NCBI GenBank assembly: GCA_964016885.1
Contig: OZ024747.1
Span: 63,054,001 to 63,118,000, forward strand
DNA from: Eledone cirrhosa
Lineage: Eukaryota
Direction of reading: 5' to 3'
Length of the DNA: 64,000 nt
Positions 10,401-51,113 of this stretch are shown here, piece by piece. The notes beneath the pieces are model-generated. The model did not search any database, was not told the origin of the DNA, and saw only the letters and a list, made by a program, of their open reading frames with translations. Position 1 is the first letter of the stretch. Each line of letters begins with the position of its first letter. The translations under genes and the position numbers were made by a program.

Positions 10401-10766
10401 GAGGCTGTTATGATTGAGAAGAAATATCTGAAAATGGATTTATTAATTCAAATATTTATAGTAAATATCTGAAGTCAGGTTTGTTAATTCAAATGTTTAT
10501 ATTATCTTTACTAGTGAAGAAATGGTTTTGGAAACAGGTAGCATTAGAGCAATCCCTTTACTTTTGAGTGTTCTGCATGTTTTATACATTTGACACTTTT
10601 GATACCAAACAGTCCTTAGTTCTCTGATAAAAAAATAATATTTTAAAGATTTCATATTTAAATTTTATATGTAAGAACTATTGTTAATGTGTTCCAAACA
10701 TATATGTAAGAACTATTGTTAATGTGTTCCAAACATATATAATGGAAGCATTAGCTATATGATTAA

Positions 10767-11042: not shown

Positions 11043-11081
<39 letters not shown>

Positions 11082-11083
<2 letters not shown>

Positions 11084-11260
11084 TATCGGGGTAACCACAG
11101 TAAGTAAGGTACTCAATACAAAGCAGAGTATAAATATTTAATATAGAAAAGCTTCTACAGGACTAGAACTGTTTCATTCGTGAGAAATCATCAGGAAGCT
11201 CTTGATGATTTCTCACGAATGAAACAGTTATAGTGCTGTAGAAGCTTTTCTATATTATAT
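11082..11260. mobile_element. Penelope-like terminal-repeat remnant with inverted duplication
   Basis: ~55-bp inverted arms (11141-11195 / 11201-11256) carrying the hammerhead; flanked by (TA)n; related pieces at ~2585-2615 and ~35550-35635. Confidence 0.55.
11150..11200 (-). ncRNA. Type I hammerhead ribozyme motif
   Basis: Minus strand AGCTTC-CTGATGA-T-TTC(TCAC)GAA-T-GAAA-CAG(TTCTAGTC)CTG-TA-GAAGCT: 6-bp stem I, intact core, stems II and III, GUA cleavage triplet; U.U at the base of stem II. Confidence 0.75.
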
Positions 11261-12565
11261 ATATATATATAATATATATATATATTGGAAAATGTGTGAA
11301 ATCCTTTGTACAGTTAGGTATATTTAAAAAAAGGAAAAGAATGACTTCACTTGTAGTTCTAAACAATTTGATTTAACTTTACAATATTATAATTTTACAA
11401 TTTGGTTTTGTAGATCTAAGTTCTTTATTAACTTCGGTGGGGAGATTTTTTAAAGATTTCTGGTTAACTTTCCTGGAGAACTTTCTCGCATTCGTCGGTG
11501 GGGATTGTCAAACTGGTTCAGTCCTGGAATCAAACTCATGACATTTTGATTGTAAGTTACACCCTTACCACTAGGCCACATGCCCCACATAAATATATGA
11601 GTAAAATGTAGTTTTTATGAAACATAATAGACTCAAGCATATTTCTCACTGGTAGAATCATAAGCCTTTCTTTTGATATAACATTCTCTATTCATTAACC
11701 TATCACTCTTCTCACCTGAGAATCAATCATCATTTAATTCTCTTTTTAGTCTTTATCAACTTTCTTTTGTTAACCAGTCATACTGTAAATATTCTACATA
11801 CTTAGGATTCAATACCTGTTGCAGAGTTGCTTTTTAGAATATGTCAGATGCACTTCACCATCAGTGAGTAAAGAGGTATAATATAATTATATATAAAAGA
11901 GCTATAGAAGCTTTAAGTTACAGGTTGTTTTACATCTGAAAGGCTGTAAAATAAAAGTCATAGATTTGTGTAGAAAAAAAAGTATGAAATAATAAAAGAT
12001 CTTGAAGTGAAAAGTGTCAATAATTATATAAGATGTAGTTTTTTACATTGATAATAAGAGCAAACATGGAAGTAGCTGGCTCAACTGTATAATTAAGAAG
12101 TTTGATATGTAACCACATGGGGGTGGGTTATATTTCACTGCATGACATCTTGGGCAAATGTCTCTTACTATAGCACCGTAGCCTGGGGTTGACAGATGTT
12201 TTGAGTGAATTTGGTAAACTGAATGATGCCCACTCTGTACACATACATATATAAGTATGTATGTATGTTCTTCTGGTTTTATAATTTTATAAATTTTTAC
12301 CAATAGAGAGAGAGTCAGTTTCTAACATTGATACAAGACTCTCTCATTGGAATTTAAACAACATCAACTAGGTAGATATGTAGACATGTCTGGATGTTAA
12401 TGTATGTGTGGATGTGGGTGTTTTGAGTTGTATGTGTGCATGTTCATATGTTTGTATCTGAACATGTGTACATGCAGTTATTAGATGCAGAATCTTTGGA
12501 ATGTTTTACATATATTTACTTTTCCATTAATGGCTTATATTTGTAAATTTTTGTATGTATGTATG

Positions 12566-13299: not shown

Positions 13300-15580
<2,281 letters not shown>

Positions 15581-15581
15581 T

Positions 15582-15800
15582 GAAGGCGTGTGGCTGAGTG
15601 GTTAGAGAATTGGATTCGCAATCGTAAGGTTGTGAGTTCGATTCCTGGACCAGGCGATGCGTTATGTCCTTGAGCAAGACACTTTATTTCCCGTTGCTCC
15701 TTCTACCTGGAGTTGCGACCGATAGATAGTATTAGCAATTGGAAAGACCAACGGAAACATTGTTCCCTCGGTCCGATTTGACGAAAGTCGATCGTTCCTA
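15582..15800 (+). mobile_element. CORE-type SINE with alternative tail (family H)
   Basis: tRNA head and ccttgagcaagacact core, then tail ctacctggagttgcg..ggaaagaccaa; siblings at 29581-29790 (+) and ~27290-27490 (-). Confidence 0.8.
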
Positions 15801-15802
15801 TT

Positions 15803-15988
15803 ATGTATATATATATATATATGTAGATATATATATGTATATGTATATATATATGTATATATATATGTATATGTATATATATATATGTTTATGTATATAT
15901 ATATATATATATATGTATATGTATATATATATATGTTTATGTATATATATATATATGTATATATATGTTTATGTATATATATATGTAT

Positions 15989-16020
<32 letters not shown>

Positions 16021-16047
16021 GTATATATGTATATGTATATATATATG

Positions 16048-16080
<33 letters not shown>

Positions 16081-16421
16081 GTATATATATATGTATATAT
16101 ATATATATATATGTATATGTATATATATATGTATATATATGTATATATATATGTATATGTATATATATATATGTATATGTATATATATATATGTATATGT
16201 ATATATATATGTATATATATATATGTATATATATATATATGTATATATATATGTATATATATATATATGTATATGTATATATATATGTATATATATGTAT
16301 ATATATATATGTGTATATGTATATATGTATATATATATGTATATATATATATGTATATATATATGTATATATATATATGTATATATATATGTATATATAT
16401 ATATGTATATGTATATATATG

Positions 16422-16484
<63 letters not shown>

Positions 16485-16583
16485 GTATATGTATATATAT
16501 GTATATGTATATATATGTATATGTATATATGTATATATATGTATATATATATATATGTATATGTATATATGTATATATATATG

Positions 16584-16615
<32 letters not shown>

Positions 16616-16675
16616 TATGTATATGTATATATATATATGTATATGTATATATAAATATGTATATGTATATATATG

Positions 16676-16706
<31 letters not shown>

Positions 16707-16746
16707 ACATATACATATATATACATATACATATATATACATATAC

Positions 16747-16778
<32 letters not shown>

Positions 16779-16930
16779 ATATATACATATATATATGTAA
16801 TAAATATATATATACATATATATATATACATATACATATATATATATACATATATATATACATATATATATATACATATATATATACATATATATATATA
16901 CATATATATATACATATATATATATATACA
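15803..16930. repeat. (TA)n compound microsatellite, G-interrupted then C-interrupted
   Basis: TATG units to ~16680, TACA units from ~16690. Confidence 0.95.
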
Positions 16931-18045
16931 CAGCTAACAGAGTAAGCAGATGTTAAAACAACAATGATGATGATGAAATTCGAAAAACTTTTTGAAACCT
17001 AACATAATGGAAACTGATTATGTAATGGAATTGTGAAACAAAAACTATACTCTTAACGACACTTAAAACATTTTAAACGTCAAAATATTAAAAGTTCATA
17101 AATATATTTCATACTCATGAGAATTTTGAAGCCACACCATTCAAACTCTATAATGTATCATATATTTTGAATTGAGGTGTAGTACATCCAGTAGATAAGT
17201 TACACCTCCATTTTATGTACTTTTAAAATGTACTATGTAATTTAAGATTTTGTAGATTCAAAATATATGGTGGTATTTCATGTATTTTCATGGAACACAG
17301 TACAACTTATTCATGAATACATACTCTACATATTAGTGGTATAAAAATATTGATGGGTTTGGAAAGCCATTGGAAAATGCAATTAGAATATGCCTTAGAA
17401 TATTAAATGAAATGGTATTGATGAGTATTGAGCAATGATCTATAGCAGACCTAACATACCTATGACCAAAGATATTAAATCTATGATAGTATGTGTATAT
17501 TGTGTCTGTGAGATATATATATGTCCATTGATATTTTTATGTGATTGCATATTCCTATGTATCTGCAATGTGATGATAAATATGTATTTCGACTATAAAC
17601 ATTATTTACAGCTATGTAATTTCAGTCAATTCATAAGAAGCTAACCAAAAATATATCACATTAAGTCTAATATGTTTTATGCTACTCTTTTCTAAAAGCT
17701 TTACTAAATGTTGAAGCTATCAGTTTTTATTCAAGTTGTGTAGTATATCTATACCACACATGAATTGGAAAAACCATTGATTTTGTTTTGAGCTGTTTAG
17801 CTTTGCTATTGTGTTACATTCCAGTCCTTTTCATTTCATCATTGCTATTTCATTTCCCTATATTGAATATTCATAGCAAGATTTTCCTAACCTTTTTGTC
17901 ATCTTTTCCCCTAGAAATTACCAAAGAAACTTATGGAACTTTCATAAATGCAACATCACAAATAATTCCAAGCATTGATTTGTTTAGCTCATAGTTTGAT
18001 CCTTACAATCTGAATGACTCATAAAAAATTGATTAGAAGTTACCA

Positions 18046-34532: not shown

Positions 34533-35759
34533 CTGAAAATAGATTGGTCAGTGGGAGTAGTGAAATGTAACTAGAGTATATTGTCAGTCTTACAAATTAT
34601 TATATGTGGGTTTTAGTGAAATACAGAGATATCAATTTTGATTTGATTACAAGATGGTGCTGAGTAGAATATTAGAATATAGTATTTAGTTTATCTTACT
34701 ATATTCTGAGTTCAAGCCCATTATTCTGAATTTAAGCCCATTTTTCTGTTCAGGAATATGAGGTCTAGAAGTATCAGACGAGTTTTGTAGCTGATTCAAT
34801 CGATTATACTAATAGAAAAGTAAGAAAAATCGATCTTCTAACTATATAAGAAACCAATAATACTTTGATATTTCTAATCATTACTAACATGTGATTGATC
34901 AGATTTTCACTGATGCCAATAGAGAAAAAGAAATAAGAACTCAGTTGTATGCAGGTCAGTGTGAAGAAGTAGAGCAATTCGTATACATCTTTTGTAAGTT
35001 TAGTTTCACTGGGGAAAAATCATTTACAAATTGATAGAAAAAGAAAACAAAGTTATTAGCTTCGTTCTGTGTATTTTTGTTGCTTCTTATACTATATAGA
35101 CAGTCAAGATGCCGACATGGCTGAGGTGCCTCACAGTCGTAAAGTCTCTAGTTTGATCTGACTTTATGGCATCTTCAGCAAGTGTTTTTACCATAACCTT
35201 GGATCAAATCAACCTTGTATGGGGAATTAGGTAAACAGACATTCTATTAGAAGTCTATTGGACATATATCTGTTATTCAAAAGGATACCTCTGTTATTTA
35301 TTGTATCATGCTGATTTGGCTTGGGTCATATGTTAAGAGTACACATGGTTGTGCAATACTCCCTCACCATCTTTCGAGGAAACGCTTTCTCTATTGGGTC
35401 CACCGGGGACACGGAGTGGCCAGCGTTGGGCCTCCATTTGCTCATAATAGTGAGAGATAGAGAAAACAGGAGAGACAGAAGCAGTGATAGTGGGAGTTTG
35501 GTTCCATTGTGTTCAGACCTGGTGTATATATATATATATATATATGTGTTTTAATATAGAAGAGCTTCTACAGGACAATTAAAACTTATATACTCTGCTA
35601 TGTATTGAGTACCTTACTTACTGTGGTTACCTCCAATTCAACCCGGAATAACTTACCTATATATATATATTGATTTACCACACACCATTAATACTTATAT
35701 TTGTGTAGATTCGGTGTTGTGATAATACACCACGTGTGTTTTGATATTTATATACATCT

Positions 35760-46959: not shown

Positions 46960-49900
46960 ATGTGACATACTACTATACACTGTTATATACTACATATAAT
47001 ACAACATACATACATATATTAATATATATACTCTCACATATACTACAGCATACTATGACATATACTACATATACTACAACATACATACATATATTAATAT
47101 ATATACTATAACATATACTACAGCATACTATGACTTATACTACATGTACTACATATACTACAACTTACAATATGTACTACATACTATGATATGTACTACA
47201 ACATGCTATGACATGTACTACATATATTACTCCATATTATGACATGTACCCCAACATATGACATATACTACATATAGTATAATGTGTACTACAGCATACT
47301 ACTATGTACTATGACTTGTACTACATATATTAATATATATTATAGCATACTATGACATATACTACATATATTAATGTGTACTACACCATACTACTATATA
47401 CTATAATATATACTACATATATATAATGTGTACTACAACATACTACTACATACTGTGTTATATAATACATATATATAATGTGTACTACAACATACTACTA
47501 CATACTATGACATATACTACATATACTATTGCATACTGTGTTATATACTACATATATAACAACATACATATTCATCTAAAGTGCCATATGTACACAACAC
47601 CATATTGTATACACACCATCAAATATACACAACACCATATATACACACCATCAAATATACACAACACCATATAAATACACCATCATATATACACAGCATC
47701 ATATATACACCATCATATATGCACATCATCATATATACACACCATCATATATACACATCATCGTATATACACCATCATATATATACACCACCATATATAC
47801 ACAACACCATATATATACATCATTATATATACACACCACCATATATACACACCATCATATATACACAACACCATATATATACACCATCATATATACACAA
47901 CACCATATATATACACCATCATATATACACACCATGAAATATACACACCATCAAATATACACACCATCATATATACACAACACCATATATACACAACACC
48001 ATATACACACAACACCATATATACACCATCATATATACACAACACCATATATACACAACACCATATACACACCATCATATATACACCATCATATATACAC
48101 AACACCATATATACACAACACCATATACACACAACACCATATACACACAACACCATATACACACAATCATATATACACACAATCATATATACACACCATC
48201 ATATATACACACCATCATATATACACCATCATATATACACAACACCATATATACACAACATCATATACACACCATCATATATACACACCATCATATATAC
48301 ACAACACCATATATACACACCACCATATATACACACCATCATATATACACACACCATCATATATACACACCATCATATATACACACCACCATATATACAC
48401 ACCACCATATATACACACCATCATATATATACACACCATCATATATACACACACCATCATATATACACACAATCATATATACACACCTTCATATATACAC
48501 ACCGTCATATATACACACCGTCATATATACACACCGTCATATATACACAACACCATATATACACACCACCATATATACACACCATCATATATACACACCA
48601 TCATAGACTACTATTCGATACATCTTATACTATGTCATACACTACATTACTCCATACCTAGACCATACACCACACCACATCACTCCATACACCACACCAC
48701 ATCACTCTATACACCACCCCACATACTATACAACACAACACCCCACATACTATACAACACACCACCCCACATACTATACAACACACCACCCCACATACTA
48801 TACAACACACCACCCCACATACTATACAATACGCCATACACCACATACTATACAACACACCACCCCACATACTATACAACACACCACCCCACATACTATA
48901 CAACACACCACCCCACATACTATACAATACACCATACACCACATACTATACAACACACCACCCCACATACTATACAATACACCACCCCATATACTATACA
49001 ACACACCACTGCACATACTATACAACACACCACTGCACATACTATACAACACACCATACACCACATACTATACACCACACCACCCCACATACTATACAAT
49101 ACACCACCCCACATACTATACAACACACCACCCACATACTATACAACACACCACCCCACATACTATACAACACACCACCCCACATACTATACAATACACC
49201 ACCCCACATACTATACAACACACCACCCACATACTATACAACAGACCACCCCACATACTATACAATACATCCACCCCACATACTATACAACACACCATAC
49301 ACCACACCATACAGCACATACTATACAACACACCACCCCACATACTATACAACACACCACCCCACATACTATACAACACACCACCCCACATACTATACAA
49401 CACACCATACACCACACCATACACCACATACTATACAACACACCACCCCACATACTATACAATACACCATACAGCACATACTATACAACACACCATACAC
49501 CACATACTATACAACACACCACCCCACATACTATACAACACACCATACACGACATACTATACAACACACCACCCCACATACTATACAACACGCCATACAC
49601 AACATACTATACAATACACCACCCTATATACTATACAACACACCTTACACAATATACTATACAATACACCCCCCCACATACTATACAATATACCACCCCA
49701 CATACTATACAATACACCACCCCACATACTATACAACACACCACCCCACATACTATACAACACACCACCCCACATACTATACAACACGGCATACACCACA
49801 TACTATACAACACACCATACACCACATACTATACAACACACCATACACCATACACTACATCACAATGCACTATACCACACCATGCCATACATCATATCAT

Positions 49901-50312
49901 ACTATGTACCACACTATATACTACACCCTTCACCAGACCATACACCACACCATACACCATACCACACACACCATACACCACACCATACACCACACCATAC
50001 ACCATACCACACACACCATACACCACACCATACACCACACCATACACCATACCACACACACCATAAGCCCCACCATACCATACACCATACCACACACGCC
50101 ACACCATAAACCCACCTGGTCAAATACCACACTGCAACATACACCACACTGCAACATATACCACACTGCAACATATACCACAACATACACCACATTGCAA
50201 CATATACCACAACATATACCACACCATACACCACACTGCAACATATACCACAACATACACCACACTGCAACATATACCACAACATATACCACACTGCGAC
50301 ATATACCACACC
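46960..50312. repeat. Composite C/A-rich satellite with successive unit types
   Basis: CATATACTA-like, then ~16-bp ATATATACACACCATC, then 24-bp CCCCACATACTATACAACACACCA, then 12/17-bp CATACACCACAC units. Confidence 0.95.
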
Positions 50313-51113
50313 ATAGACTATATCGTTGTTTCGTTATTGCAGTAAACAGACTGACATGTATTAATGTGTAAAGAATGTTTTTATGATCTCCTGTAAATCA
50401 CCAGAAGTGTGTTAACCCATTGGTAATCAATGAAGACTTAGACTCTGGCTATGTGATTGATTGGCTGTTATGTGTCCATCAATGACTTCTGACACTGATA
50501 TTGACACAGAAATAACAGTCATATGTAAGACCAATGTTATATGAAGCTTATTTCTCATTCTTTGAAAATCTTGGAGTAGAGTCATTGTTGCAGAGTTTCC
50601 ATGGGAAAATTTATTTAAATAAAAAGTTTCTTAGTTATGGAAAAGGTATGAGAAGCATTGCTCTGGTTTGTAGTAAACTCTATTCCATGCATTCAAAACG
50701 AAATTCAGATTTGTTGTAGTGAAGTTAAACAGTGTTCTTCACTATCTGTCCCAAATTCTAAGGCTCATCTGACCGAAGCTAATCTCGGTTTCACTGGAAT
50801 TAACTGAAATTAGAAGTGAAGTGATGTGTTTTGCCCAAGAACACAATGTTCCATGCTGCATCTACACACACACAGATACACACAACAGTATGGCAGGGAA
50901 TCAGTAGATCATCAGACACTCTACTTTGTAGCATAGAGTTATACCCCTTTATGTTTTGAGTTCAAATCTCGCCGAGGTTAGCTTTGCCCTTCATCCTTAT
51001 GGGTTCAATAAAATAAAGCACCAGTAATGCATTGGCGTTGATTTAATCGACTTCGCTTCCCCTAAACTTGTTGATCTTGTGCCTAAATCAGAAATCATTA
51101 TTACAATTCATTA

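Follow-up and report, generated by a model that had tools for sequence, protein, structure and literature searches.

A 176-bp insertion occupies positions 11081-11256 of the window, the whole 64,000-nt stretch of Eledone cirrhosa DNA analysed here, and lies within a (TA)n run. It is a piece of a Hydra-clade Penelope-like element (PLE), consisting of a minus-strand hammerhead motif and its tail, placed head to head with a shorter inverted copy (Table 1). The feature had been delimited in the first-pass annotation as 11141..11256; that extent holds for the hairpin, but the full insertion is larger, the tail of the minus-strand arm running on to 11081. The long arm has a small internal deletion near its own 3' end, and its 5' end is the A that we predict to be the transcription start of the element. 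The short arm differs from it by three substitutions. The four-base AGCT palindrome described at the centre of the structure is present at the junction, and possibly served as microhomology for joining. With neither a promoter nor an ORF, the locus itself is an ordinary dead insertion.

Table 1. Features of the PLE insertion, its (TA)n target and a second insertion in the window
Feature	Position	Strand	Basis
(TA)n target, left side	11044..11080	.	sequence, family ends
Long arm: hammerhead and ~60-nt tail of Hydra-clade PLE	11081..11200	-	92% identity to L096
Type I hammerhead motif with intact core, U10.1.U11.1 and 3-bp stem II	11150..11200	-	core motif, stem I compensatory change
AGCT at head-to-head junction, first 4 bases of the predicted transcript	11197..11200	.	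sequence
Short arm: second copy, inverted, with the short 3' end typical of the family	11201..11256	+	arm comparison
(TA)n target, right side	11257..11286	.	sequence
Second insertion of the same family	35548..35658	.	non-overlapping short inverted arm and tail-only long arm, between TA runs

Microsatellites account for most of the signal in a repeat search of the whole window. Kilobase-long compound microsatellites occupy 14700-16950 and about 47000-50500, the latter with extreme GC skew and AT skew, and a near-perfect 36-nt tandem duplication lies at 10669-10742, about 340 nt from the insertion. The insertion had been placed next to a minus-strand gene relic, a reading not sustained by a Pfam scan of 60 of the 186 open frames of the window that passed the filter: none of the 60 reaches the Pfam cut-off, and no host gene was found among them near the insertion. 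The sole coding relic found is an old PLE piece unrelated to the insertion (1871-2333) and 9 kb away from it. This degraded minus-strand relic of a related PLE, with 33% protein identity to the family ORF, extends over 1871-2616 and has a worn hammerhead-tail end at 2531-2616.

How secure is the hammerhead itself? The type I hammerhead claimed on the minus strand at 11150-11200 is borne out in its parts, with stem I AGCUUC/GAAGCU, CUGAUGA, GAAA, a GUA site and stem III CAG/CUG. Stem II consists of U.U followed by UUC/GAA, the stem III loop contains a CUAG palindrome, and the predicted cleavage falls between 11156 and 11155. The motif thus has the type I core CUGANGA, GAAA, NUH, three stems and covariation, with U.U in place of the G10.1-C11.1 pair. 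The covariation is one compensatory stem I pair, C-G to A-U, between the window's subfamily and a sister subfamily; loop II differs between the two subfamilies, and the UUC/GAA stem is kept. The identification draws on the core motif, on covariation and on context, because the stability of the lone hammerhead is like that of shuffled sequence (z -0.17), and an Rfam scan of the motif returned generic hairpin matches only, without a hammerhead family either at the gathering threshold or at E<=10. By its core and stems the motif is a candidate self-cleaving type I hammerhead. The U.U at 10.1-11.1, at first noted as atypical, is indeed present. It recurs family-wide and is not a defect of this copy, it occurs in at least four other hammerhead types among the loci fetched, and the published Hydra-1_aJap hammerhead has U at both positions (PMC8557442). 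Many further hammerhead types with palindromic helix III loops are present in the genome (L039, L130, L142, L007, L079 and others); the closing pair at 10.1-11.1 in these types is U.U, C.A or G-C.

The inverse plus-strand copy was likewise found where it had been described (11197-11246), with C3>U and one unpaired A in stem I, as was the hairpin of about 55 bp. The 116-nt hairpin folds at -83.4 (plus) or -77.1 (minus) kcal/mol, about 21 and 20 standard units below shuffles (z about -21 and -20), and 0/200 shuffles are as stable.

A genome-wide count suggested at first reading gave 1,641 exact matches to the 26-nt core (reversed control 0), and pattern search gave 14,607 exact matches for the core of the sister subfamily and 6,277 for a further hammerhead family, family C. 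The source assembly is 3.0 Gb and rich in (TA)n. A search with the 116-mer produced 1,828 first-look candidates, of which 40 were scored; in the copies fetched, a shared tail of about 70 nt prolongs one side, and TA repeats usually border both. Searching with one arm exposed the native upstream sequence of the element. The first 60 loci had been selected by likeness to the query and were therefore unfit for frequencies; they were excluded from frequency counts, for which position-ordered pattern matches were used instead. The resulting sample of 86 sites comprises the first 95 of 100 listed position-ordered core matches on contig C1, minus 9 that were partner arms of sites already counted, and retains 3 sites of a derivative family. 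A large share of the family's copies are minimal hammerhead-only stubs, and the genome holds thousands of young copies whose ends separate insertion models.

Several other repeats share parts of this architecture. The family B hammerhead, with 25,687 exact matches (L213-L242, e.g. G000:C1:5541147-5543698), also has U10.1.U11.1 and occurs in retrozyme-like tandem arrays, same-sense and of about 420-520 nt, which frequently include an inverted block; by eye, these arrays show no obvious cluster of 5' ends. A derivative repeat of several hundred non-coding nt in L126, L143 and L151 has a fixed partial antisense arm. In L143 and L151 the repeat continues into the hammerhead and the short end; it is possibly a non-autonomous element that captured a hairpin. 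Another abundant mirror-image repeat in TA runs (L003, in the downstream flank, L026, L029, L039, L045), with a GAAA-loop hairpin but, on inspection by eye, no CUGANGA, is likely to be the end of another PLE family.

The suggested link with Penelope-like terminal repeats proved correct. Hammerhead and tail directly precede frames encoding reverse transcriptase (RT) and GIY-YIG domains. In L096, which carries the end of the window's subfamily, this frame is broken; in L117-L120, of the sister subfamily, the frames are intact over 758 codons. The long arm matches the pre-ORF stretch at 92% identity over 118 nt in L096 and at 90% in L117. The parent therefore has the layout of an endonuclease-positive PLE, a single ORF with RT followed by GIY-YIG, downstream of the Penelope terminal repeat (pLTR), although the Pfam match for the 758-codon frames is weak (E 0.008, below cut-off). 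Of 7,994 candidates scored against its protein, 1,416 are relatives at E<=1e-20, and the 120 listed include no named one. Translations read by eye contain RWR, DKT, CNCLNKEAC and CDLC..E..N..CMH, and no CCHH was seen; the Hydra clade is described as having RWK-like and DKT motifs, a CxCx5C linker, and CxxC and CxH around E and N, without CCHH (PMC8557442). Judged by these motifs against the published description, the parent is assignable to the Hydra clade. Insertion into (TA)n agrees, 69 of the 86 family 3' ends abutting TA repeats. The partial-tandem pLTR of endonuclease-positive PLEs is present too, hammerhead and tail being repeated every 4.8-5.9 kb. Hydra-clade families are generally under 3 kb, a tendency and not a strict rule (PMC8557442), and the spacing of 4.8-5.9 kb between hammerheads exceeds it. 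The ORF is about 2.1 kb, and the length of the units is explained by a microsatellite-rich region of 2-3 kb between the ORF and the 3' repeat (L117:4260-7100; L118-L121).

Where do the arms stop, and how are they paired? The A that opens stem I is the commonest 5' end point (17 sites), and 56 of the 86 arms end no more than 8 nt from it; the remaining 30 read past the hammerhead edge, and their 5' ends scatter across 450 nt or more. Junction positions are uncertain by a few bases, owing to the AGCT palindrome and to local alignment, and the search pattern misses any arm ending within the core. An inverted arm is adjacent at 54 of the 86 sites, both arms ending at the stem I edge in 38, and the junction letters vary from site to site. 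At 48 of these 54 sites one arm has a long 3' end and the other a short one (p 2e-9 against 50:50). A C/T site that distinguishes the subfamilies is the same in both arms of all 32 scorable pairs (18 T, 14 C), so both arms derive from one template or locus.

The position of the stop is where a transcript would be expected to begin. Among the 26 copies that extend upstream, 23 have ATAAATA 28-33 nt above the stop A, and in the window's family that A stands in a TCAG or CCAG context. This is the spacing of a TATA box and its initiator. In the sister subfamily (26 sites after dropping 4 partner rows), which lacks the AGCT palindrome and has its TATA at -30, the end falls no more than 7 nt from the same A at 11 of the 26 sites, of which 8 are tight hairpins; AGCT is thus ruled out as the cause of the junction, since a subfamily without it joins at the same place. 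Family C separates a promoter from a ribozyme explanation, because its TATA and TCACT initiator lie about 58-60 nt upstream of stem I. In this small sample (29 sites after dropping 1 partner row), 13 sites extend at least 100 nt upstream, and in 10 of 11 long copies checked a TATA lies at -30 or -31 of the TCACT initiator. Of the 16 truncated copies, 10 have their end no more than 7 nt from the initiator, and no copy ends as near as 10 nt to stem I, so the stop follows the promoter motif and not the ribozyme. The 5' ends cluster, then, about 30 nt below a TATA-like box, and we infer that the A opening stem I is the transcription start of the element RNA. Both arms stop at a position with the spacing of a TATA box and initiator, and family C stops at its own initiator, which makes it likely that the arms are run-off cDNAs from the 5' end of the RNA. 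The AG at the 5' end point could instead be a 3' splice site; in Drosophila virilis an intron ends at helix I (PMC4209133). Penelope of D. virilis has an internal TATA-less promoter (PMC2377424), so the type of PLE promoter is not universal.

Taken with the identity of the element, these observations suggest how such stubs may arise. Both cut strands of the (TA)n target would prime reverse transcription on the element's RNA, at two internal start sites about 60 and 130 nt into the leader, one per target strand. Both cDNAs would run off the 5' end of the RNA and be joined head to head with 0-4 nt of microhomology, and longer copies would derive from the downstream repeat of the same RNA. The hammerhead, occupying the first 51 nt of the element RNA, would be a passenger. 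Similar steps have been seen in vitro with an anole PLE, which cuts and extends both strands of AT-rich DNA and starts reverse transcription at two internal RNA sites bracketing the tail, with no need for hammerhead cleavage (PMC11167929). For the stub in the window we consider it probable that it is a Hydra-clade PLE end produced in this manner, both cut target strands having primed and the run-off cDNAs having been joined. The broader proposition, that PLE head-to-head palindromes are two 'strong-stop'-like cDNAs started at two fixed leader sites of one mRNA, run off its end and joined, we favour only slightly.

The closest competitor keeps the same element and derives the palindrome from self-priming, one cDNA or an antisense template folding back at the junction and copying itself. 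Self-priming of an antisense template was proposed by Arkhipova et al. 2013 and is the published reading of PLE junction palindromes (PMC3846280). The invariable agreement of the arms at the subfamily variant suits it, AGCT could seed the fold-back, and 37 of the 48 long/short pairs have nested or equal arms, which fit it equally well. Fold-back predicts, however, that the tailed arm contains the other arm, and 11 of the 48 pairs run counter: in these, of which one is borderline, the 5' end of the short arm lies more than 8 nt beyond that of the long arm, and the long arm has tail sequence that is missing from the short one. The long arm reaches further 5' in only 5 pairs, and the two are equal within 8 nt in 32. 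In six of these non-nested pairs the long arm ends at the short start site, 42-56 nt beyond the beginning of the core, which is what would be expected had another enzyme been primed earlier at that site of the same RNA. The copy at 35548-35658 has a non-nested layout too, and because its arms do not overlap, neither can be a copy of the other. These 10 clear non-nested pairs and the second window copy, together with a sister subfamily that has the junction at the same point without AGCT, tell against fold-back, which we regard as unlikely, though the strongest of the alternatives. Non-nested arms could also come from later asymmetric deletion at an unstable palindrome.

Two further readings give the ribozyme or the hairpin a role of its own. 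A ribozyme fold, a bound protein or a splice acceptor at the hammerhead edge might block or divert RT: in the window's family the arms stop exactly at the base that begins stem I, with CAG before it, or a U-rich tract in the sister subfamily. Family C, stopping at its initiator well upstream of stem I, and the 30 of 86 arms that read through the hammerhead edge make such a block improbable. Alternatively, selection at this locus could maintain the hairpin as a ribozyme switch or a dsRNA substrate, or the palindrome could be an element that moves in one piece; any transcript across the site would form the hairpin, and the derivative family in L143 and L151 has part of it as a fixed piece. The first-pass annotation had called it a ribozyme dimer and a potential conformational switch. 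Hammerhead dimers need two same-sense copies (PMC4209133), between which helix III is exchanged, and the two copies here are mutually antisense, so this is not a dimeric hammerhead. Nor is switching expected at equilibrium, because the hammerhead fold is about 70 kcal/mol worse than the hairpin and the stem I pair probability falls from 0.99 alone to about 1e-40 inside it; an RNA switch is improbable. Within the power of the 86-site sample, no selection on the ribozyme is detectable: in arms not fixed by the search pattern, core positions are 96.8% intact against 95.5% elsewhere (p 0.27), so the core is not detectably better conserved than its flanks. Apart from the C/T site, 123 variants occur in one arm only and 17 are common to both, and the structure is in decay. 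With junctions that vary among sites and no host gene found nearby in the frames scanned, selection or movement as a unit is very improbable. A hairpin DNA transposon moving as a unit, in particular, is ruled out by the differing junctions, the asymmetric ends and the ORF-linked parents.

Two run-off cDNAs, the reading we prefer, can be set against what is known of related systems. PLEs typically have inverted copies truncated at the 5' end and a tail on one side (PMC8557442), and the Hydra-clade elements of Craig et al. 2021 resemble the present family in RT followed by GIY-YIG, (TA)n targets, a canonical hammerhead, an inverted 5'-truncated copy at the 5' end and a tail on one end only (PMC8557442). 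Unlike the Hydra-clade elements, generally below 3 kb and with tails of 30-40 nt, the present family has units of about 4.8-5.9 kb, a tail of about 65-70 nt, and many copies that are minimal hammerhead-only stubs (PMC8557442). In the rotifer Adineta vaga, Penelope pLTRs are inverted head to head with a junction palindrome ascribed to self-priming, and carry TATA and initiator-like motifs (PMC3846280). The junctions described here are alike in all these features of arrangement and sequence, but their non-nested arms argue for two primings. This is also reminiscent of Schistosoma, where 100-700 bp separate the dual minimal hammerheads of opposite strands (Cervera and de la Pena 2014, PMC4209133), unlike the hammerheads here, which abut directly.

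Poseidon of Anolis offers the nearest experimental parallel (Frangieh et al. 2024, PMC11167929), with two RT starts bracketing a tail downstream of the hammerhead, AT-rich targets, and cutting and extension of both strands without hammerhead cleavage; it belongs to a different PLE clade, and is not known to have been examined for inverted products or for run-off at the RNA 5' end. The non-coding, PLE-derived non-LTR retrozymes share the type I hammerhead and consist of same-sense tandem units with at least two hammerheads (bioRxiv 10.64898/2026.07.22.740005). The window site differs in having an inverted pair and no tandem unit, in contrast to the arrays of family B. The priming scheme itself has a counterpart outside PLEs. 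In twin priming of LINE-1, two target ends prime two cDNAs and leave an inverted 5' segment. Unlike in LINE-1, the priming sites here would be fixed, about 70 nt apart and close to the 5' end of the RNA; overlap between the arms, which is usual, produces a palindrome in place of a simple inversion.

Inverted PLE ends are thus already known, and the run-off, two-primer reading would be the new part; no title proposing a two-priming or a run-off model for PLEs was found in the open literature. The inverted structures have been ascribed to 'still undefined features' of the transposition cycle (PMC8557442), which makes the family useful, since the ends of the genome's many young copies discriminate between models. 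What makes the locus of interest is that the ends of its family can test how PLEs replicate. Insertions of this kind seed many hairpins of about 55 bp, with dsRNA predicted wherever they are transcribed. If the run-off, two-primer reading is true, a single step would account for the tail, for the inverted pLTR and for the abundance of mini-stubs, and the reading would replace self-priming and give direct predictions for the in vitro PLE system. Junction positions would then map the transcription starts of PLEs from DNA alone.
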